Shown here piece after piece: positions 22,478 through 33,805 of a stretch of DNA of 64,000 bases. How positions within the stretch are numbered: position 1 is the stretch's first letter; each line of letters begins with the position of its first letter. The DNA is from Bacillales bacterium UBA7581 (lineage in GTDB: Bacteria > Bacillota_I > Bacilli_A > RFN20 > CAG-826), in assembly GCA_002477825.1 (NCBI GenBank), contig DLKT01000014.1:1825-65824 (forward strand), given 5' to 3'. The position numbers and the translations under genes are program-made. The notes under the pieces were generated by a model. That model did not search any database. It was not told where the DNA came from and saw only the letters and a program-made list of their open reading frames with translations.

Positions 22478-23599
22478 TTAGTTTTTATCATTGCTATCTA
22501 TTAAACAAAAAGTAACGTCGTTTTTATTCGCTTTGCCTTCAATAATAATTAAATAAATTTTTCCTGTCTTTAAATTTCCAGTATAAAGCTTATCTTCTTC
22601 ATCATACACCAAGAGAGTAAAATCATCAGCACTTGCACCCACAACGTGCGTTTTCCACTCTTTTTCTAAGTTACTAGAGTCATAAGGTGCAACTCTTAAA
22701 AAATTCTTATGATTTGCTTTTAAATTCGTTTTAAAATAATATCTTCCTTTTGATTCATCAAAATTAAACATCTCATATTGATCAAAAGTACAAACATTAC
22801 AAATCCCCATTTTGTCATAGTTTTCATCATGTTCGTGATGCTCAAGCGCAGTAATTGTACCATAAGCAACTTTTCTACCGCCTTCAACGGCGCCTATTTC
22901 CATACCCTTATCTAAAATAAATTGGGTTTTAAGAATAATCGTAACTTCATGTGTTTCTCCTGCCTTAAAGCATTCTAAATCGCTAGGCAAAAGAATCGAT
23001 CCGTAAACATCTGCCGTATAATAAGTAGTGCCAAGAATAACATTAGGATACAATTTAATAATCAAGTGATATTTGGTAAAGAAGGGCGTGTTTCTTCCAC
23101 CTTCGTCCTTAGTTAAGGTAGTTAAATTTACTTTCAATTGGTTATAATATTGTTTCGTTGAAGGTGTAAAGAGTGAATAGCCTTTTTGAATTTGTTTTCC
23201 ATCCACACCTTCAATAGATAATTCAACTTCTTCTCCTTTTGATGCATTTTCATACGCTTTATTATTTTTTTCAATCCCAGTAATAGTTACATTTTTATCT
23301 AAGTTTGAAAGCGTTAAAATATCGCCTGTTTTCACAGAGCCACTATAGATGGTGCCTGAAACAACTGTTTTTCCGCCAGTGGTTGAAAGTACATCACTAA
23401 TTGGCATAAAGAAAGATTTGTCTTCCGTTGGCGCTACTGTCGTTTGCGTTCCTGTTGTTGAAGTAACTATTGTTGGTTCAGTTGTTGATTGTGTTGGATT
23501 ACCACTTGTTGGTTTTTTATTTCCACAGGCGGTTGCTGTTGAAAGTAAGGAAACCAATAATAAAGAAGCGGTTAAAATAGTTTTTATTGTTTTTTTCAT
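22478..23599 (-). CDS. Lipoprotein containing EF-Tu domain II and III homologs without a GTPase domain, plus an unknown C-terminal domain
   Basis: Signal peptide with lipobox (LLSTATA-C25) and a T/S/P-rich linker. Residues about 60-252 are colinear with EF-Tu domains II-III (FFMPISDV, GGKTVVSGT, VKTGD, ITGIE, LTKDEGGRNTPFF, VEGGRKVAYGTIT). Confidence 0.85.
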   Translation of the reverse strand: MKKTIKTILTASLLLVSLLSTATACGNKKPTSGNPTQSTTEPTIVTSTTGTQTTVAPTEDKSFFMPISDVLSTTGGKTVVSGTIYSGSVKTGDILTLSNLDKNVTITGIEKNNKAYENASKGEEVELSIEGVDGKQIQKGYSLFTPSTKQYYNQLKVNLTTLTKDEGGRNTPFFTKYHLIIKLYPNVILGTTYYTADVYGSILLPSDLECFKAGETHEVTIILKTQFILDKGMEIGAVEGGRKVAYGTITALEHHEHDENYDKMGICNVCTFDQYEMFNFDESKGRYYFKTNLKANHKNFLRVAPYDSSNLEKEWKTHVVGASADDFTLLVYDEEDKLYTGNLKTGKIYLIIIEGKANKNDVTFCLIDSNDKN

Positions 23600-24157: not shown

Positions 24158-26446
24158 TTATTGTTTATTTATTGTGCAATTTGTATACGAACAATTATTA
24201 AATGTTCCTTCACCAGTCCCTTTGATTTCAGAAGCATCGCTACCAAGTGAAGCAGTAATTGTCGCATTCGTTAGCGTGCAGCCTTCAACAGTGACGTTAG
24301 TTTTAAGTAACCCCACAATTCCTCCAACATTGTTTTCAGCTGTAACATTAATATTCGATATACAATTCTTTATATACACTATAGATGTTGTTTCATTTTC
24401 TCCAGTATGACCAATCATACCTCCAACATATTGTGTTCCTTTTACATAACTTTCTTCTTCTACAGCAATGATACAATTCTTTAAAATATCGGTGGAAGTA
24501 ACATTATAGTTATTTAATACATAATTAGTCGCTTCAATTTTGCCAGCAAAAGCACCAACATTATTCTTTCCATTCACCATGACTTTTCCTTTTAAAGTCA
24601 CATTTTCTAATACACATCCTCCAATTAAATCATAGGAATTACGTTTTCCTTTGAGGCTATAATTTCCGCCACCAAAGACTACACCAACATTATCATTTCC
24701 TGAAACAAAAGCGTTTTCGATAGTTAAGTTTTCCACTTTCATAAATTTATATAGTTGTTGACGGTTATAAGTTGTCATTTTTCCACCTGTAGCAAAAAGA
24801 CCTTTACCATATTCACCAGATGTATCAATGTCATCCGTTGCATTCATTAGCAAATTAGAAATCGTATGTCCATTACCATTAAAGGTACCAACAAAGCCAT
24901 AAATTGGAGTAAACGGTTCATTTTTTAAATCAACATCACATTCTAATTTAACATTACTTAAATATAAACCTTCTCCACTATTTACATAATCACGGAAATA
25001 TTGAAGACCAATTTCTTCATCAATTATGCCACTGTCGCTTGTATAATAGAATCCCTCTCCAAAACGGGAAAGATATATATTGGATTGTGTAAAACTTCCG
25101 ATATAGTTATTTGTTTGGTTCTCGCAAGTTATGGCATAAACCCATGCACCTTTTGATTCATCATATTTCATGAAATCATAAAGGGAACCTTTAATGGTCG
25201 CCGTATTCCCTTTTTCTTGATAACCTAGAATAGAAGCACATCCCCCACTAGAAGTAGAAGTTATTTCTACTATGGATGTATTATCGAAATCTCCTGCGAT
25301 TTCTCTAATTTCCAATTCATCACCATCATAATATCCACAAACACCACCAGCATAAGTAGATGGCGTAACATGAATGTCACTTACAAATGTGCTGTCAATT
25401 GTCGTCGTACCTGTCGCTTTTCCAACAATACCACCACCATATTCCACATTACGAATAGTAACATTCTCAAGACGAATGTTTTCGCTCTTAACCGAAATAT
25501 TCTCTCTCACATTGCCAAATAAAGCACCACCAGCACTTCCGCTTCCTGTACCTTCAAATGTAGCGTTGCGAATTGTTAAATTCTTTACATTGACAGAATT
25601 TGAAACATTTCCAAATAAGCCAACATATTGATCTGCCATCTTGAAGTTTGAAATTGAATAATTGTTTCCATCAAAAGTTCCAGCAAAATTATTTAAAGGA
25701 AGAATGGAAGCTCCTTCTAAGTCAACATTTCCGCCTAAATGAACAACTCTTCCAGCATACGTCTTTCCTTCATTCACATTTTTAACAAATGCATTAAAAT
25801 CTTCTTTTGAACATATATACATTTCATTAGGTTCATTTACTGTATCTGCATTTCCTTGTACAGCCTCAACACGATAAACGATTTTACACGAAGTTCCCTC
25901 ATATTGGTTACTATCCGCACTCTCAGCAAATTCTACACTAACTGGAAATGTTACCGCTGTTTTATTTGTGCCTTCGATTGGATTGAGTGTTTTCCATTCA
26001 GAATTAATTTTCCAAGTAAACTCTCCATCAACGCCTAAGAAAGTTTCTGTTCCTAACGTAATGGTTAATGCTGAAAATAAACCTGTATCATCTGCTTTGG
26101 TGACAACAGTACGATATTTTACAGGGACATCACTATTATTTTGAATATTGATGTTAAATTTTGCACCATCACCTGGCATAAAACGGGCTAAAGACAAGCT
26201 ACCATCACTTAAAAGAGAAATCTCTCCTCCTAAAGTGTGATTATCGCCTAACTCATATCCTTGGTTTAATTGTTTTGTTTGAATACTCGTTTGATCAACA
26301 ACAGCAGTCACATCAACTTTACCTGATTTTACGACAATATTCACTTCGTCTTCAGAAGTAAATAAAGCATAAGTTCCGCCAGCAATAAGACTTGCACTCA
26401 AGCAAATTCCTAATATTGCAGAAGCAATTACATTACTCTTTTTCAT
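24158..26446 (-). CDS. Secreted adhesin-like protein: SipW-type signal peptide, TasA/camelysin-like beta-sandwich, and two GLUG-motif beta-helix modules
   Basis: Start set at the ATG at 26446 (GGGGGA SD). Signal LIAGGTYALFTSED. The TasA-like module ends at QYEGTSCKIVYRVEAVQGN. It is followed by FAGTFDGNNYSISN...YVGLFGN and FVGTFNGNGHTISN...GKGLFATGG, with repeated NVGG(I/V)VG-type GLUG motifs. Confidence 0.8.
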   Translation of the reverse strand: MKKSNVIASAILGICLSASLIAGGTYALFTSEDEVNIVVKSGKVDVTAVVDQTSIQTKQLNQGYELGDNHTLGGEISLLSDGSLSLARFMPGDGAKFNINIQNNSDVPVKYRTVVTKADDTGLFSALTITLGTETFLGVDGEFTWKINSEWKTLNPIEGTNKTAVTFPVSVEFAESADSNQYEGTSCKIVYRVEAVQGNADTVNEPNEMYICSKEDFNAFVKNVNEGKTYAGRVVHLGGNVDLEGASILPLNNFAGTFDGNNYSISNFKMADQYVGLFGNVSNSVNVKNLTIRNATFEGTGSGSAGGALFGNVRENISVKSENIRLENVTIRNVEYGGGIVGKATGTTTIDSTFVSDIHVTPSTYAGGVCGYYDGDELEIREIAGDFDNTSIVEITSTSSGGCASILGYQEKGNTATIKGSLYDFMKYDESKGAWVYAITCENQTNNYIGSFTQSNIYLSRFGEGFYYTSDSGIIDEEIGLQYFRDYVNSGEGLYLSNVKLECDVDLKNEPFTPIYGFVGTFNGNGHTISNLLMNATDDIDTSGEYGKGLFATGGKMTTYNRQQLYKFMKVENLTIENAFVSGNDNVGVVFGGGNYSLKGKRNSYDLIGGCVLENVTLKGKVMVNGKNNVGAFAGKIEATNYVLNNYNVTSTDILKNCIIAVEEESYVKGTQYVGGMIGHTGENETTSIVYIKNCISNINVTAENNVGGIVGLLKTNVTVEGCTLTNATITASLGSDASEIKGTGEGTFNNCSYTNCTINKQ

Positions 26447-26462: not shown

Positions 26463-27134
26463 TTATCTTGCACTTGTTGCTTGAACGGCTTCAACATATA
26501 AATCAATATTTGTTTTTAATCCTTTGGCTTCGTTATTATCGAAGTGAACGTCATTTAACCGATCATCAACAAATTCAATTTTCACTTTAAACACCGATTG
26601 AGCACTTTCATCGTCGTTCACTAAAACTTTGCCACTTGCAATTTCATAATTCTTATTTAGATCTGATAAAAATTCACTGGTTTCTGTTCCATTTTGATTT
26701 GTAATGGTAACTTTGATTTGTTCAGCAAGTTTCTTATCGGTGCCTTCGCCAAGTTTTAAATACACATTGTAATCAAATGCAACAGTCCCCCCATTATTAG
26801 CGATGCACATAGTGGCCGTATAACTAGAAGTTGGAACGATGAGTTCTTCATTATCCATTCCAAACACGTTTTCAGTTGTTCCTTTTGTAAAATCGACTGG
26901 TGCATCGGATGAACTTTGTACAGTTTTTTCTTTTACAATACCATCGTTCTTATCTAATCGATTTTGTACGAGTTCTTTTCTTACAAGTTTAATCTTTAAA
27001 TCTCCTGCTTGTAAATGATTAGTTAATGTAACATCACTGCTCCAAAGAGCATAGGTTCCACCAGCTAATAAAGCGACGCTAAGCATGAGCATCATGCTCG
27101 CCGTCATTAATGTTTTTGTTTTTCTTTTTTCCAT
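26463..27134 (-). CDS. TasA/CalY (camelysin, M73-like) family secreted protein
   Basis: Start at the ATG at 27134 (AAGGGGA SD). SipW-type signal peptide LLAGGTYALWSSDVTLTNHLQAGDLKIKL. C-terminal NNEAKGLKTNIDLYVEAVQ is typical of the family. Confidence 0.82.
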   Translation of the reverse strand: MEKRKTKTLMTASMMLMLSVALLAGGTYALWSSDVTLTNHLQAGDLKIKLVRKELVQNRLDKNDGIVKEKTVQSSSDAPVDFTKGTTENVFGMDNEELIVPTSSYTATMCIANNGGTVAFDYNVYLKLGEGTDKKLAEQIKVTITNQNGTETSEFLSDLNKNYEIASGKVLVNDDESAQSVFKVKIEFVDDRLNDVHFDNNEAKGLKTNIDLYVEAVQATSAR

Positions 27135-27184: not shown

Positions 27185-27832
27185 CTATTTTGCTGCCATT
27201 GATGCTTTATCCTTTGTTAATTCATGTCGATGACTATTTCGACGAATTCTTGCTTTTTCTTTTTTATATGCTTTCTCTTCTTCAATTGCATCCACTGCAA
27301 TTCGAATACTGTCCTTCACCGCAGAGAGCGATTCCCCATCTGTAACCTTTATCACTGCTGGTGCTTGTTTTACTACAACTTTGTTATCATTTACATAGTT
27401 CTTAAATTGAAGATTCGGTATCATTAGTTCACAAACAACGACGCCACGTCGTATCTTTAATCGCACCAAGCTTCTTTTACCAAGTCTAAAATCCTCATAC
27501 TGTGCTTTTTTAAAGTGCTTAATGTTATTAATCATTCCAGCAAATTCAACGATTTCATCATAATATTCTTTGTATTTTGATGAAAGAGCATTATATTTTT
27601 CTAACAAGGTTTCATTTCCTGTAGTAAACTTAACATTCTCGTCATTTTGTTCGACAATCTCATTTTCCACATTCGCAACTGTCGACGCTTCTAGCGTTAC
27701 TTGAGCATCTTCTTTCACTTCTTGCATTTTATGTTCATGCTTTTCTTCTATAATGTCACAACAGACAACTACTACACAAAAAAGACTAAACGCTAAGACT
27801 AATGCGACAAATATGATTAATAAAGTTTGCAT
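27185..27832 (-). CDS. Single-pass membrane protein of unknown function inside the SipW operon
   Basis: 215-aa ORF. It has an N-terminal hydrophobic helix ending in CC, an acidic linker, a globular segment and a basic tail. No family recognised. Confidence 0.6.
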   Translation of the reverse strand: MQTLLIIFVALVLAFSLFCVVVVCCDIIEEKHEHKMQEVKEDAQVTLEASTVANVENEIVEQNDENVKFTTGNETLLEKYNALSSKYKEYYDEIVEFAGMINNIKHFKKAQYEDFRLGKRSLVRLKIRRGVVVCELMIPNLQFKNYVNDNKVVVKQAPAVIKVTDGESLSAVKDSIRIAVDAIEEEKAYKKEKARIRRNSHRHELTKDKASMAAK

Positions 27833-27879: not shown

Positions 27880-28713
27880 CTATTTTTTTTCTTCATCTTT
27901 GCTCAACGACGAGCCTTCTTGAGGAAGATCGGAAATAGGCGGTGCCGTAGATTTATTAGATTTTTGTTGAAGTTCATCAAGTTGACGCCTTAATTCTTTA
28001 ATTTCATTAGCCTGGCTTTCCCAAGCAATGGCTTCTTTTTCTTTCTTTTCTTTATTTAATACGCCAATGATACGAATAATCTGAAAACCAATTAGAGTAA
28101 GACAAGGAATGATAATAATACAAATAATTCCTATAGGACTTCTTAATGCATAAACAATTGAACCAACGAATCGGCTTTGACCAGTTACTCTTCCAATAAT
28201 ATAATTAGGACTATTCTCATCGCTGGTATCAATAATTTGTTGCCCCACACCACTAGAATCTAATTTATTGTCTCCTTCTAACGTTATAATATAGCCCCCT
28301 TGATTTTTTTCTTCTATCTTTACAACGCGGTGAGTAATTGTAACTTGTTTTTGATAAACATATTTAAATGTTAGAACATCTCCAATTCGGAGTGTTTCTA
28401 GCCACTTTTGCTGTTTAGCCTCTTCTTTGGGCATAACTTCGATAAACACACAAGATTTTACAGGAATACTTTTGATTTTATATTCAGACACATCTGTCTG
28501 ATCACATTTTTCCATGGAGCTTGATTGTACAAAACGAAGTTGATACCCAAATATTGTCGCGGCACCATCACTATCTTTTTTTGCCATTACACTTATTGAG
28601 AGAATAAAAATTGCGAAAATCAAAATTAAAAATACAATAATATTCCCCATAAAACTTAGCGCTTTTTTTATTGGTCTCTTTTTTTCATCTGATGGTAATA
28701 CTTTGCTTTCCAT
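27880..28713 (-). CDS. sipW: Signal peptidase I, SipW (ER/archaeal) type, with a long charged C-terminal tail
   Basis: TM1, Ser box VQSSSME, GDVLTF, His box VTITHRVV, EGDNK, RSPIG plus TM2, matching B. subtilis SipW boxes (SGSMEP, GDVITF, VTHRIV, KGDNN, SQPIG). An extra tail of about 58 aa follows. Confidence 0.88.
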   Translation of the reverse strand: MESKVLPSDEKKRPIKKALSFMGNIIVFLILIFAIFILSISVMAKKDSDGAATIFGYQLRFVQSSSMEKCDQTDVSEYKIKSIPVKSCVFIEVMPKEEAKQQKWLETLRIGDVLTFKYVYQKQVTITHRVVKIEEKNQGGYIITLEGDNKLDSSGVGQQIIDTSDENSPNYIIGRVTGQSRFVGSIVYALRSPIGIICIIIIPCLTLIGFQIIRIIGVLNKEKKEKEAIAWESQANEIKELRRQLDELQQKSNKSTAPPISDLPQEGSSLSKDEEKK

Positions 28714-28718
28714 ATTGA

Positions 28719-29219
28719 TTACCTCAATTCCATTGTTTTAGCCAATAAATCAACATAAAAATTTGCTTCAGCACCTTTTGCTTCATTTCCTACGCTTTCT
28801 GGCATTGTATACGTAATTATGATTTGATTTGTTCTCATTCCAAGATTTAATATCTTACTATTGTCGTCTAATAGTTCCTTTAAGGAGTTTTCGATTATGA
28901 CTTGTTTTGTCTCAACTTTTACATTTATATAATTCTTTAATTGATTTTCATCATTATCGCTATCGCGAAAGCTTAGATAAACATTTAAATTCACAATATT
29001 TTTACCATTCAAATGAATCGTATAAGACGTGCTACTTCCCGGATAAATATTTGAAATTTTCGTAGACAAAGTTTGGGTGGTATTTTCCTTTAATGTTACG
29101 CTTACATTCCCAGGCAGTTTATTTTCTTTAGCAATATTAAAATAGACGCCAATTCCAATTAACGCTAATAAAATGCATATCATAGTTAAAACATATTTAA
29201 TTTTCTTATATGCCCCCAT
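28719..29219 (-). CDS. Membrane-anchored TasA/camelysin-fold protein lacking the SipW cleavage motif
   Basis: Start at the ATG at 29219 (GGGGGAG SD 8 nt upstream). TM helix VLTMICILLALIGIGVYF, then IYPGSSTSYTIHLNG and C-terminal GNEAKGAEANFYVDLLA, resembling TasA-family strands. Confidence 0.6.
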   Translation of the reverse strand: MGAYKKIKYVLTMICILLALIGIGVYFNIAKENKLPGNVSVTLKENTTQTLSTKISNIYPGSSTSYTIHLNGKNIVNLNVYLSFRDSDNDENQLKNYINVKVETKQVIIENSLKELLDDNSKILNLGMRTNQIIITYTMPESVGNEAKGAEANFYVDLLAKTMELR

Positions 29220-29348
29220 ATGCTCGTCTCCCCCTATCAAACATTTAAAAATGCTATTAAGCTAATGTCGTATTTCCCAAAAACTTTTGTAAATTTAGAA
29301 ATTTTAATTTAAAAATATTGAAAATAGATTTATTCAATATTGAAAAAT

Positions 29349-29379
29349 ATCATACCCCCCCCCCGTACTTTTTTGTCAA
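29349..29379 (-). promoter_or_regulatory. Sigma-A-type promoter of the SipW/TasA-like operon with a homopolymer in the spacer
   Basis: Minus strand reads TTGACA (29379-29374), then AAAAAGTAC plus G10 (19-nt spacer), then TATGAT (29354-29349). About 125 nt upstream of the first CDS. Confidence 0.75.
29355..29364. repeat. C10/G10 homopolymer tract
   Basis: Counted directly: catacccccc ccccgtac. Conspicuous in an AT-rich genome. Confidence 0.98.
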
Positions 29380-29908
29380 GACTTTGTGCGAAGGTCATTT
29401 GCACTTGCAGTGCAATGATATTTGCAAATTGAACTGAACTGCTATATTCAACGTCTTATGCTATTTTTATTCGTAACAAACGTATAGCAAAGGCTTTGTA
29501 AAATAAAATTGCTATCAATTGCTATATTTTTCACATAGCCTCAACATACTACTCTTAGATATTCATTATTGTCAATATATAATTTACATTAAAAATAATG
29601 GGGGTTATATTAATTTTGGTTTGTCCTTGTCACTCCAATGTCGCAAAACATTTAGCACGATATTTTCTTTGTAAACATCATTTTTTTCATAGATAAATAG
29701 AAAAAGTAGAAAAGCATCAATCAGTACTTGGTTTTCCTACTTTTTTTTGCTTTTCAACTATGGAAGATGGAATGATACCATACTTTTTGCAACACCTCTT
29801 TTGAGGTTTGCTATGCTTTTAACTTTTTACGTTAATTCAATGGAAAATTATTTACTTTGTCCTTGATTTTCCTCATCTAATTTCATATATAAAAAACTAT
29901 CTTTATTG

Positions 29909-31753
29909 TTAATTAGCCAGGCTGTTTTTCTTTAATAAAATGGCCCCCATGAAAAGTAATAAACTAAAGGTTGCAATTACAGCAGTAGAAGCCTTCTGGC
30001 ATCCATTTTTCTTTGAAGGCTTGGAAGTTTCATATTCCTGAATTTCAAAAGGTGCTGTATAATAAACCAATTCCATCGATTCATCTTTAAAGGCTGCAAT
30101 CACTGAATATTTGCCACGTTCCTTTTCTTGATAAGAGAAAATCTGTCCTTCAACTTCTATTGTTCCACCTACATAAGTTGTGGCCGTTAAAGTAACAGCC
30201 AAATCCTTAGTGAAATCTTGGCCTTTTTCTAATTTCATATCATTGCCTTTTATTTCAAAAATTCGGTTGGTAAAATAATCGGCAATATTGTTTGTAATAC
30301 CAATAAGACCATTTTTGATACAGGTGTGCTTCATATTGTAAATATTATCAATCGTCCAATACCAACCAATATAACCTCTATCGCGTAAATATAATTCGTT
30401 AAATTCCTTAGAAAATGCATTAAGCGCCGAATCAATACCCGCATTCAATCTTCCCAATAAAGCAAGGTTTTTATCAAATGTTTTTTCACTTACATTTCCT
30501 AAGTAAGCTGTAGGAATCATTGGAAGATTATTTTTCACTCTTTCTAATGCTGTAGTAGAGAAAGAGATAATTACGATTTGATCATACAATTGATATTGAT
30601 CGAGTTTTTCTTTTAGTAAAGTGGGAAAATTTTCCTTTTCTGTTTTTACTTCTAAAACAAGAATCGTTTGGGTATCTTTTAACGTTTGGAAAATATCATC
30701 AACATTAGGAATTTTTTCGTTTGGCTTATAAACATCTAATTCAAATTTTTCTAATTCTTCGGAGGTGTAATTCTCGAGAGAACCAGTGCCTGATGTAGTA
30801 CGGTCAATCGTTCCATCATGCATAAAATAAATTTTATTATCTTTGGTAACATATGCATCTAATTCGACGTGAGTCGCACCAACTTCCATTGCTTTTTTTG
30901 TTCCACTTACAGAGTTTTCATGAGCTTGTTTAGGTAATCCACGATGACCGACATTAAAGAAAGGGCGGAAAGCCGTACCTTCTTCTAATTGCTCAAATAG
31001 TTCATATATGTGTTCATAGTCTTTTACAATTAATCCATATGTCCCTGTTTGTAAAGCCGAATAAATATCAAAATCTGTTTCTTTATCCAATCTTGTCCAA
31101 ACCGTTTTAAAACGAGCATGAACATATGTGACGTTCTCTTTTGTAGCTAAAGAAGAAGGAAGTACAGCGACTTGTGCTAGATTTTCATTGGTAGGAGCAA
31201 CAACCATTTCATATAAGTTTTTCTCTTCCGATAATTCACTATATTCAACAATACCACGAATTTTGGTATTAGTTTCTCTTATTGTTTTTACATAGGATGG
31301 TGTATTAGAAAGAACCGCCATATCTAGCATATCCAATTGTGTTTTTGAAAATTTCATAAAGGCGTTCATACTATTTTCATCTTGAATGGATAAAATTGGA
31401 ATGATAAAAGGTGTTATCTCGTTATAAACATTGATAAAAGAGTCAATAACATTACCCTCTTTATCTATGATATTTGCATTTTCATCAAAATGTAAGATGA
31501 CGTTAGAAGGCCGCGTATCCGTTGTTACCACTTTATCTAAATCATCTTTAGATTCAACGTCAACAATTAAGGTAGGCAAATTTCTTACTGCCGTCTCATA
31601 TTCAAATGTCTCGATAAGTTCATTATCTGTAATAAGTCCTGTTTCATTTGCATTTTTGTTTTCAGCGTTAGCTTTAACGCTTTTTGAAGTTTGGAAAAAA
31701 TTACAACTTGCAAACAAAAAAGCGCCTATCATCAATAAAGGTATTCTTTTCAT
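29909..31753 (-). CDS. Surface lipoprotein glycerophosphodiester phosphodiesterase, paralog 1
   Basis: Lipobox LFASC. An N-terminal domain of about 250 aa is of unknown family. GDPD core: HRGLPKQAHENS, GATHVELDAYVTKDNKIYFMHDGTIDRTT. C-terminal hydrophobic anchor. Confidence 0.85.
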   Translation of the reverse strand: MKRIPLLMIGAFLFASCNFFQTSKSVKANAENKNANETGLITDNELIETFEYETAVRNLPTLIVDVESKDDLDKVVTTDTRPSNVILHFDENANIIDKEGNVIDSFINVYNEITPFIIPILSIQDENSMNAFMKFSKTQLDMLDMAVLSNTPSYVKTIRETNTKIRGIVEYSELSEEKNLYEMVVAPTNENLAQVAVLPSSLATKENVTYVHARFKTVWTRLDKETDFDIYSALQTGTYGLIVKDYEHIYELFEQLEEGTAFRPFFNVGHRGLPKQAHENSVSGTKKAMEVGATHVELDAYVTKDNKIYFMHDGTIDRTTSGTGSLENYTSEELEKFELDVYKPNEKIPNVDDIFQTLKDTQTILVLEVKTEKENFPTLLKEKLDQYQLYDQIVIISFSTTALERVKNNLPMIPTAYLGNVSEKTFDKNLALLGRLNAGIDSALNAFSKEFNELYLRDRGYIGWYWTIDNIYNMKHTCIKNGLIGITNNIADYFTNRIFEIKGNDMKLEKGQDFTKDLAVTLTATTYVGGTIEVEGQIFSYQEKERGKYSVIAAFKDESMELVYYTAPFEIQEYETSKPSKKNGCQKASTAVIATFSLLLFMGAILLKKNSLAN

Positions 31754-31954: not shown

Positions 31955-33805
31955 TTATTTAGCAAAACTACTTTTCTTTAGTACGATAGCGCCTAAGAAC
32001 ACTAACAAACTAAAGGAAGCAATGACGGCCGTTGAAGCCTTTTGACAACCACTCTTTTTCGGCGGATTCACGATTTCTTCTTCGCCATCTTGAATCTCAA
32101 AAGGTGCGGTATAGTATGTAAGACTTGTTGAATAATCAGTGTAATAAGCAATAACAGAATACTTGCCTTTCTCAATTTCTTGATAGAAATAAATTTGTCC
32201 TACTACTTTTGTCTCTTCACCTTTATATGTTATAGCGGTTAAAGGAACAACCGTATCTTTAGAAAGGGTTTGTCCTTTTCCTAATTGCATATGATTTCCT
32301 TTTAAAGAATAAACTTTATCGCTAAAATAATCTGCGACATTATTGGTAATTCCAACAGCACCACTTTGTGGTCCCATATTTTCAATAGAAGAAACATTAT
32401 CGTAAGTCCAGAACCAACCAATGAAACCTCTATCTCTTAAATAGAGTTCATTAAATCTCGTTGAAAAGGCACCCATAGAAGTATCTACGCCAGCATTCAT
32501 TTGTCCTAATAAAGGTAAAGCTTTCGTAAAATTACTTTGGTTTACACTTCCTAAATATGCAGTTGGTACTTCAGGTAAAACATCTTTCATTTGTTCTAAC
32601 ATTGAGCTTGAGAAAGAGATCACCACGATTTGAGGATAGAAATTATATTCATCCAATTTTTCCTTTAATAAAGTAGTAAAATTTGCTTTGGTCGTTTTAA
32701 TTTCTAAAACCAAAATAGTTGACGTTCCTTGTAATGTTTGAATAATCTCATCAATATTAGGAATTTTTTCATGTGGTTCAAATAAATCAAGTTCATATTT
32801 TTCTAATTCTTCGGATGTATAGTTTTCTAAAGCACCTTCACCATTAGACGTACGCATAATCGTGCCATCATGCATAAAATAAATTTTATTATCTTTAGTA
32901 ACATAAGCATCTAATTCAACATGTGTTGCTCCTACTTCTGTTGCTTTTTTCGTACCACTTATAGAATTTTCATGTGTTTGCTTTGGAAGTCCTCTATGTG
33001 CCACATTAAATGATGGACGGAAAGAACTACCCTCTTTTATTTGCGTGTACATTTCATATACATGCTCATAATCTTTAACAATCAATCCATACGTTCCCGT
33101 TTGAATTGCTGAAAGAATATCTAAATCCGTTTCACCCGTTAATCGTGTCCAAACAGTTTTAAAACGAGCTTGAATGTAAGTGACATTTTCTTTTGTTGCT
33201 ATAGAAGGAGAAAGCACCGCTACATTAGCAAAATGAGCGTTCGTAGGAGCGATAACCGAATGATACATATCTCCATCAGTGATATCGTTATATTCAATAA
33301 TTCCACGTATTTTGTTATTTTCATCCTTAATCCCTTTTATATAGTCAGGTGTGTCGGACATAATTGATAAGTCAAGAATATCCATTTTATTTTTAAAGAA
33401 ATCCACAAATGCAATATAACTGTCTTGATTTTCAATATAAACAATCGGCAAAATCTTTTTATTTAGTTGCGCATAAACATTAACGAAAGAATCAATAACA
33501 TTTCCTTCTTTATCGGTAATATTTTGATCTTTATTCATGTGTAAAATTACATTCGATGGTCGAACTTCTGTACTCGTTACTTTGGTTAATTGTTCTTTTG
33601 ATTCAATATCCACAATTACGGTAGGAAGATTATTCGCGACCGTTCCTTGATAATACGTTGAAGCTAAATTGTTATCGACCACTAATTCTTCGCTTGATGT
33701 TTCATCCGCCAAAGCTCTTTTTTCCATTTTAGGGGATTGAAATAAACATGCACCAATACATAAAAATAAGCTTAATGATAAAAGTTTTCTTCTTTTCATA
33801 TTCAT
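31955..33805 (-). CDS. Surface lipoprotein glycerophosphodiester phosphodiesterase, paralog 2
   Basis: Lipobox CIGAC. Colinear with paralog 1 over its full length (HRGLPKQTHENS, GATHVELDAYVTKDNKIYFMHDGTIMRT). Same C-terminal tail. Confidence 0.85.
   Translation of the reverse strand: MNMKRRKLLSLSLFLCIGACLFQSPKMEKRALADETSSEELVVDNNLASTYYQGTVANNLPTVIVDIESKEQLTKVTSTEVRPSNVILHMNKDQNITDKEGNVIDSFVNVYAQLNKKILPIVYIENQDSYIAFVDFFKNKMDILDLSIMSDTPDYIKGIKDENNKIRGIIEYNDITDGDMYHSVIAPTNAHFANVAVLSPSIATKENVTYIQARFKTVWTRLTGETDLDILSAIQTGTYGLIVKDYEHVYEMYTQIKEGSSFRPSFNVAHRGLPKQTHENSISGTKKATEVGATHVELDAYVTKDNKIYFMHDGTIMRTSNGEGALENYTSEELEKYELDLFEPHEKIPNIDEIIQTLQGTSTILVLEIKTTKANFTTLLKEKLDEYNFYPQIVVISFSSSMLEQMKDVLPEVPTAYLGSVNQSNFTKALPLLGQMNAGVDTSMGAFSTRFNELYLRDRGFIGWFWTYDNVSSIENMGPQSGAVGITNNVADYFSDKVYSLKGNHMQLGKGQTLSKDTVVPLTAITYKGEETKVVGQIYFYQEIEKGKYSVIAYYTDYSTSLTYYTAPFEIQDGEEEIVNPPKKSGCQKASTAVIASFSLLVFLGAIVLKKSSFAK

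Follow-up and report, generated by a model that had tools for sequence, protein, structure and literature searches.

A length-polymorphic G tract in the promoter spacer of a SipW/TasA-like operon is a candidate slippage switch in gut bacteria

The predicted promoter of a SipW/TasA-like operon in Bacillales bacterium UBA7581 contains a homopolymeric tract of G residues between its −35 and −10 hexamers. The length of this tract is polymorphic among close strains, while its flanks are conserved. In our judgement the tract is probably a hypermutable contingency element in a sigma-A-type promoter, through which the expression of a fibre encoded by the five-gene operon would be toggled. A slipped-strand switch of promoter spacing had been proposed by a sequence-only reading of the window (the whole stretch of 64,000 nucleotides of DNA that was analysed), and this proposal is now supported by the conservation of the element, by its position and by its length polymorphism. 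The element was found in lineage A, which is the window's own species, in lineage B (contigs L024 and L025) and in lineage C (L029, L037 to L039 and L041 to L043).

On the minus strand, positions 29379 to 29349 read TTGACA-AAAAAGTAC-GGGGGGGGGG-TATGAT, with a spacer of 19 nt of which 10 are G. Re-reading this strand returned the letters, boxes and spacing that had been described before, namely a perfect −35 box, a −10 box with five of six matches and a 19-nt spacer with G10. The element is composed as follows.

29374 to 29379, minus strand: −35 hexamer TTGACA, six of six consensus positions, invariant in lineages A, B and C
29365 to 29373, minus strand: spacer segment AAAAAGTAC, invariant across the lineages
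29355 to 29364, minus strand: G10 homopolymer GGGGGGGGGG (C10 on the plus strand), the variable part of the spacer; G10, G9, A+G9 or A+G8 in relatives
29349 to 29354, minus strand: −10 hexamer TATGAT, five of six consensus positions
29341 to 29343, minus strand: predicted transcription start, placed 6 to 8 nt past the −10 box according to the usual sigma-A geometry

The tract stands out from its surroundings. It is the longest homopolymer of any base in the window, which has a GC content of 34% and A or T runs of at most 8 nt. The sequence-only reading had seen no comparable G/C run, and a count bears this out, since the C10 run at 29355 to 29364 alone exceeds 6 nt among the G and C runs of the 64 kb. 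A first-order Markov model predicts about 0.002 + 0.006, i.e. about 0.008, runs of G or C of at least 10 nt in the window. The length of the tract is far beyond chance and sufficient for hypermutability. The hexamers are less telling: 12 sites in the window match the consensus at 11 of 12 positions with spacers of 13 to 23 nt. The hexamer match is thus not significant alone, and the assignment as a promoter is based on conservation and position rather than on the consensus score. The site with its G10 tract is absent from a promoter scan of the window, which admits spacers of 16 to 18 nt only. A spacer of 17 nt would require a shifted −35 box, which was rejected as it matches only two of six consensus positions. 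The tract appears to lie between −35 and −10 hexamers that are backed by conservation, as expected of a promoter-spacer repeat.

The window differs from the metagenome-assembled genome (MAG) GCA_002438695.1 (contig DJQI01000037.1) by one single nucleotide polymorphism (SNP) in 6.8 kb, and its relatives are gut Clostridia and Christensenellaceae MAGs. Lineage A comprises six public assemblies after similar places had been collapsed, and the same set was recovered with the first operon gene (g1), the SipW-like gene, the third operon gene (g3) and the glycerophosphodiester phosphodiesterase (GDPD) gene as queries. A scan of genome contigs for the exact flanks gave no match; the sole match of a pattern scan of metagenome contigs, L020, is an unrelated chance match without a G run.

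Comparison of the lineages argues that the tract is maintained. The DNA of the operon is about 72% identical between lineage A and lineages B and C, and 88.5% identical between B and C. Nevertheless, a 29-nt block, CTTGACAAAAAAGTAC-Gn-TAT, is identical in all three. In both comparisons the homology between lineages starts exactly at C-TTGACA, one base 5′ of the −35 box. The gene upstream of the operon is a GDPD gene in lineage A and an ABC transporter gene in lineage C, and the flanks are unrelated. Because the block is identical at such a low identity of the operon and next to unrelated upstream flanks, the uninterrupted G tract appears to be kept by selection although it is unstable. The −10 box reads TATGAT in lineage A, TATTAT in B and TATGCT in C; T1, A2, T3 and T6 are kept, and the variation is confined to positions 4 and 5, the least critical ones. 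In lineage C, where about 65 nt separate the end of the upstream gene from the −35 box, the promoter scan of the G9 allele returns TTGACA-18-TATGCT as the sole same-strand site between this gene and g1.

Distant orthologous operons share a common gene order, and canonical promoters precede them at a comparable distance from g1.

L007 and L018: TTGACA-17-TATAAT, no G tract
L008 and L011: TTGACA-18-TATAAT, no G tract
L044: TTGACA-17-TACAAT, no G tract

It might be argued that TTGACA...TATGAT is not the operon promoter at all and that transcription starts elsewhere, for example from TTGACA-18-TAGTAT (29575 to 29546), so that the G run would lie in the 5′ leader or have no role in expression. Matches at 11 of 12 consensus positions are indeed common in this AT-rich window, and the alternative site, with its 18-nt spacer, lies 200 nt upstream. 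We regard this explanation as very unlikely. The upstream site is not conserved, conservation sets in at the −35 box of the G-tract element and has the form that a −10 box would show, lineage C has no same-strand site besides the G-tract promoter, and the leader is without an Rfam match or significant structure. Neither the window nor the intergenic region yielded an Rfam family (the sole weak match, BTnc231, scored 18.6 bits against a cut-off of 80.4), and the leader RNA folds no better than shuffled sequence (z = −0.09). It is on the conservation pattern, the sole site of lineage C, the canonical orthologous promoters and the lack of an Rfam family or RNA structure in the leader that we infer the G-tract element to be the promoter of the operon.

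The leader contains two further elements that are relevant here.

29315 to 29340, no strand assigned: palindrome ATATTGAA-N10-TTCAATAT, about +1 to +27, the sole match in the window with 0 expected by chance
29230 to 29234, minus strand: G5 run in the ribosome-binding region of g1, with a G5/G6 equivalent in lineage C

The arms of the palindrome, ATATTGAA and TTCAATAT, are conserved in lineages B and C. Since the leader RNA shows no significant fold, the palindrome is taken for a DNA operator rather than an RNA element; its location over the predicted start site suggests a candidate operator for a conventional repressor. A cognate regulator gene for it was not found nearby. Further repeats are located upstream of the −35 box: a perfect palindrome, TTGCACTGCAAGTGCAA, at 29399 to 29415 and, at about 29440 to 29540, five copies of ATAGCA together with one inverted copy (TGCTAT). 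In lineage B a single ATAGCAGTTCA is retained, directly adjoining the −35 box.

The lengths of the tract in the public assemblies of the three lineages are listed below.

Lineage A, G10, 19-nt spacer: GCA_002438695.1, ERR8981346, SRR1747045, SRR29834428 and ERZ26858483 (n = 5), plus the window
Lineage A, G9, 18-nt spacer: ERZ26858458 (L003 and L028; n = 1)
Lineage B, G10, 19-nt spacer: L024 and L025 (two runs)
Lineage C, G9, 18-nt spacer: L029, L041 and L042
Lineage C, G10, 19-nt spacer: L038
Lineage C, A+G9, 19-nt spacer: L037
Lineage C, A+G8, 18-nt spacer: L039 and L043

The spacer thus amounts to 19 nt in nine of 15 public assemblies and to 18 nt in the remaining six; spacers of 17 or 20 nt occur in none of the 15. 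Alleles from G8 to G10 are present among strains that are at least 99.3% identical. Within lineage A, the one-G indel that yields G9 is the sole difference across 4,545 nt, and a single G is likewise all that separates L037 from L039 in 2,981 nt. Aligned over about 5.8 kb, the lineage C sequences differ by SNPs in 39 columns and by indels in only two, each of which falls in a G run. The length of the tract has changed independently at least three times inside clades that are at most 0.7% diverged, and, roughly estimated, the tract changes at hundreds of times the rate of an average site. Heterogeneity of the tract in related strains had been named as a check of the proposed switch, and with alleles of G8 to G10 at such identities the tract is not invariant across these assemblies. 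The second indel site of lineage C, the only other one in the 5.8 kb, is the G run in the ribosome-binding region of g1, which is G6 in L029 (2219 to 2224) and in L037 to L039 and G5 in L041 and L042. A change between G5 and G6 at this place alters the distance of the Shine-Dalgarno sequence from the start codon as well as the frame of an upstream ATG.

The tract alleles are consensus calls of assemblies, several contigs have a coverage of only about 4 to 5x, and homopolymers are error-prone. It therefore has to be considered that the tract is real but of invariant length, and that the differences represent sequencing or assembly errors. Besides the low coverage, the frequent ends of Logan contigs near or inside G runs show that such runs trouble these data sets. 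Yet most alleles recur: G9 of lineage C was obtained from three independent data sets (L029, L041, L042), A+G8 from two (L039, L043) and G10 of lineage A from five. Moreover, a single data set, ERZ26858483, gives G10 for lineage A and G9 for lineage C, and differing calls for co-occurring lineages in one data set make a run-specific bias unlikely. On this evidence we consider homopolymer errors a highly improbable explanation of the variation. Lineages A and C co-occur in the metagenomes ERR8981346, SRR1747045, SRR29834388/428, ERZ26858458 and ERZ26858483, each with its own poly-G promoter copy.

The contig ends themselves were examined as a possible sign of heterogeneity within samples, and this idea was rejected. 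The start of contig L005 is 9 nt ahead of the tract and that of L025 and of L039 33 nt ahead, and L040 begins within the G run of the ribosome-binding site; the offsets of 9, 33, 33 and 83 nt contrast with the approximately 20 to 21 nt of a k = 31 bubble. In lineage B, each of the 11 contigs terminates no more than about 85 nt upstream of the promoter. As one contig also breaks in another G run, technical causes are indicated, and the contig ends near G runs are probably an effect of short-read assembly, with structural variation upstream of the promoter in lineage B as the alternative.

These observations can be combined into a model of the proposed switch. Replication slippage would add or remove one G in the tract, and the spacer would then move between 18 nt, a length within the functional range of the clade, and 19 nt, a length outside of it. 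Cell lineages would toggle in this way, heritably but reversibly, between higher and lower or no expression of the fibre. The G10 tract of the window would correspond to the 19-nt state, presumably low or OFF, and a repressor bound to the conserved palindrome over the predicted start may provide additional control. In this model the effect of tract length on expression, the rate and reversibility of switching, the start site and the repressor are all inferred. A spacer of 18 nt is deemed functional because the orthologous promoters and the other promoters of the window use 17 or 18 nt: the intergenic promoters in the window have spacers of 17, 18 and 17 nt, and a 19-nt spacer occurs in none of about ten comparable promoters of orthologous operons and window. 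By analogy with porA of Neisseria meningitidis, the G10 state of the window should be the weaker of the two. The sequence-only reading had assumed that the loss of two Gs would restore an optimal 17-nt spacer. Such a spacer is absent from all 15 assemblies, in which only 18 and 19 nt occur, and the natural toggle is most likely one between 18 and 19 nt instead of 17 and 19 nt.

Two observations are difficult to reconcile with a pure switch of spacing. The presumed weak 19-nt allele is the majority allele in lineages A and B, which is odd unless the OFF state is favoured in the gut. In addition, the half of the spacer that is not a repeat, AAAAAGTAC, is also invariant; a pure spacing model leaves this unexplained, and it hints at a bound protein. 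The promoter could accordingly be a fixed, suboptimal and factor-dependent one, in which the spacer (AAAAAGTAC and the G run) is bound by a protein or has a structural role, as when an activator makes up for the 18- to 19-nt spacing, and in which changes by one G are near-neutral noise. Invariance of the entire spacer across lineages, and not of the repeat alone, is what such a promoter would show; the prevalence of the 19-nt allele in lineages A and B, the G-to-A exchange at the 5′ end of the tract that preserves the total length in L037, and the conserved palindrome adjoining the promoter, which implies that regulators act there, point in the same direction. A binding site, however, needs no uninterrupted homopolymer, and length changes would shift a bound factor relative to the −10 box, yet six of the 15 assemblies differ by one base. 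Furthermore, no inverted repeat has both arms inside 29349 to 29379, and neither a MerR nor another regulator was found among the neighbouring genes scanned. We therefore consider a factor-dependent promoter of fixed architecture unlikely. A promoter of the MerR type, which the 19-nt spacer might suggest, was rejected, as there is no dyad inside the spacer region (29349 to 29379) and no MerR match in 18 neighbouring proteins. The slippage switch remains the reading that we favour, and the present data fit stable, strain-specific alleles (a slow tuning of the promoter) as well as rapid phase variation.

Five co-directional genes are located downstream of the promoter.

28719 to 29219, minus strand: g1, first gene of the operon, membrane-anchored protein of 166 aa, no family match, syntenic in all relatives
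27880 to 28713, minus strand: SipW-like (ER/archaeal-type) signal peptidase I; NCBIfam SipW E = 1.8e-16 and TIGR02228 E = 8e-10, both under the curated cut-offs
27185 to 27832, minus strand: g3, membrane-anchored protein of 215 aa, no assigned family
26463 to 27134, minus strand: g4, TasA/camelysin-like protein of 223 aa with a SipW-type signal peptide; PF12389 23.8 bits (cut-off 22.5), TIGR04088 24.3 (cut-off 19)
24158 to 26446, minus strand: g5, about 762 aa, N-terminal TasA/camelysin-like domain and SipW-type signal peptide; PF12389 30.8 bits, TIGR04088 23.9

The scores of the peptidase, 60 bits for NCBIfam SipW against a cut-off of 190 and 38.8 for TIGR02228 against 51.85, place it below both thresholds, and a Pfam match was not obtained. 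Its sequence contains SSSME and ITHRV, which we take to resemble the catalytic Ser and His motifs. Both g4 and g5 exceed the curated cut-offs for PF12389 and TIGR04088, and the C-terminal region of g5 is long, Gly-rich and repetitive. An AlphaFold (AF2) model of g4, built from 37 homologues, has a pLDDT of 84. A sequence search of the PDB with g4 gave no match; among PDB structures the model is matched best by the TasA fibre 8AUR (E = 7e-5, probability 1.0), with a TM score of only 0.45. At this TM score, the model indicates a TasA-like fold for g4. The family scores together with the match of the g4 model to 8AUR justify the designation as a SipW/TasA-like operon. Of the surface fibre and adhesin genes that had been announced downstream of the promoter, the TasA-like members are thus supported by profile scores and by the g4 model and the SipW-like member by sub-threshold scores, whereas an adhesin role of the operon products is conjecture.

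Some features of the window outside the operon may be recorded. Directly upstream of the operon are two tandem paralogous GDPD-domain proteins (29909 to 31753 and 31955 to 33805; 614 and 616 aa), each with a signal peptide and a C-terminal hydrophobic tail, and the pair is followed by a 779-aa protein with a weak match to an Ig-like surface domain. A 373-aa open reading frame (ORF) at 22478 to 23599 matches domains 2 and 3 of elongation factor Tu only, the GTPase domain being absent, and encodes either a truncated paralogue or a protein derived from EF-Tu. The window also has an extreme strand bias: the minus strand carries 44 of the 47 ORFs with 150 aa or more, and 175 T runs of at least 6 nt stand against 38 A runs, which is consistent with the leading-strand gene bias typical of Firmicutes-type genomes.

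In more distant relatives, the region in front of the operon is arranged differently. G or C runs of more than 7 nt were not found in 123 kb of outgroup loci. In L009, L012 and L015 the orthologous operon is preceded by a gene for a tyrosine recombinase (Pfam Phage_integrase), and adjoining this gene is a segment of about 230 to 270 bp that is flanked by inverted copies of an 18-nt motif, ACATAATGGTTGTTATGT.

L012, 3047 to 3370: ACATAATGGTTGTTATGT-flanked segment with a promoter-like site inside
L015, 3010 to 3325: the same arrangement
L009, 2883 to 3245: the same arrangement

The segment of L012 carries a TG-extended TTGACA-18-TAATAT promoter aimed at the operon and a terminator-like hairpin on the opposite strand. 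The layout of these three loci resembles an invertible promoter, each assembly showing one orientation, and may be described as inverton-like. An inverton was also considered for the window and rejected: the ACATAATGGTTGTTATGT motif is absent, no inverted-repeat pair of note flanks the element, the neighbourhood of the operon lacks a recombinase, and every region-spanning contig of lineages A and C shows the same orientation. Beside the operon of other relatives lies a divergent gene for an XRE-type helix-turn-helix (HTH) protein (L007, L016, L018) or a LysR gene (L011). The differing recombinase, HTH and LysR contexts indicate a rapid turnover of the regulatory region of the operon. A different stochastic switch seems to be in use in at least one other lineage, and this would fit the reading of the G tract as a device for phase variation.

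Slippage that alters the spacing of the −35 and −10 boxes is known to phase-vary the fimbriae of Haemophilus influenzae (hifA/hifB, TA repeats) and the surface lipoproteins of Mycoplasma hyorhinis (vlp, poly-A). The principle would be the same here; the type of the repeat (dinucleotide, poly-A) and the taxa differ, and ON/OFF phenotypes have been demonstrated for hif and vlp. Close parallels are porA (poly-G) and opc (poly-C) of Neisseria meningitidis, where, as in our case, a G/C homopolymer of about 9 to 11 nt is situated in the promoter spacer and changes by one base, and where the target likewise is a surface-exposed protein. For porA, with the G tract between −35 and −10, 11 Gs give high expression, 10 Gs a 2-fold and 9 Gs a 13-fold lower expression (PMC3639595). 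Whereas N. meningitidis is a proteobacterial pathogen, the present element belongs to an uncultured gut anaerobe of Gram-positive type (Clostridia) and would control a multi-gene operon for a TasA-like fibre. The spacers also differ in range, with 18 to 19 nt on the long side of the optimum here and 15 to 17 nt in porA, and the effect on expression, measured in porA, is a predicted one here.

Two other tracts resemble the one described here in part. In Bifidobacterium breve UCC2003, slippage in a G tract switches a pilus and the tract length is under selection in vivo (PMC9187656). This organism, too, is a gut commensal with a G tract of similar length at a surface-filament locus, but its tract is intragenic and acts by frameshift, whereas the tract in the promoter spacer would affect the initiation of transcription. 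In Streptococcus pyogenes M28, alleles of 9 or 10 residues of the intergenic T tract of Spy1336/R28-Spy1337 dominate among isolates, and a single base shifts transcript levels (PMC7098570). Gram-positive background and intergenic homopolymer are common to both cases; the T tract, however, lies between divergent genes and alters the spacing of repeats or regulator sites, and it is not known to be a −35/−10 spacer. As regards the target, tapA-sipW-tasA of Bacillus subtilis and sipW-bsaA of Clostridium perfringens also combine a SipW-type peptidase with fibre subunits of the TasA/BsaA family. Expression of sipW-bsaA in C. perfringens is bimodal through regulatory circuits (PMC7395162). Heterogeneity in these two systems originates from circuits (SinR and others, or a two-component system with the pilA2 mRNA) and not from a mutable DNA repeat, and the gene content differs as well, with g1, g3 and the 762-aa protein being without assigned families in the operon described here.

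The G-tract promoter is a credible new instance of a known mechanism, the promoter-spacer repeat of porA and opc, in a new taxon and on a new target. A limited search of the literature returned no earlier case of such a promoter-spacer repeat switch, either in Clostridia or for a SipW/TasA operon. Most of the phase variation mapped in gut commensals consists of invertons, mainly in Bacteroidota, and of intragenic repeats, as in Bifidobacterium. If the proposed switch is true, a tuning mechanism of mucosal pathogens also operates in anaerobic Firmicutes-type commensals, the TasA-like matrix or fibre would be a candidate target of selection by host or phage in the gut, and the locus would allow the ON/OFF ratios of a population to be read directly from metagenomic reads. 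More tentatively, and as a possibility that we rate somewhat below even, stochastic and heritable ON/OFF control of the TasA-like fibre operon may have been selected recurrently within this group of gut Clostridia and reached through two unrelated mechanisms at the DNA level, poly-G slippage in lineages A, B and C and a recombinase-driven invertible promoter in the sheep- and human-gut loci L009, L012 and L015, next to ordinary repressor or activator genes in L007, L016, L018 and L011. Different switching devices on one operon in sister lineages would then represent a clear case of convergent evolution of stochastic regulation.
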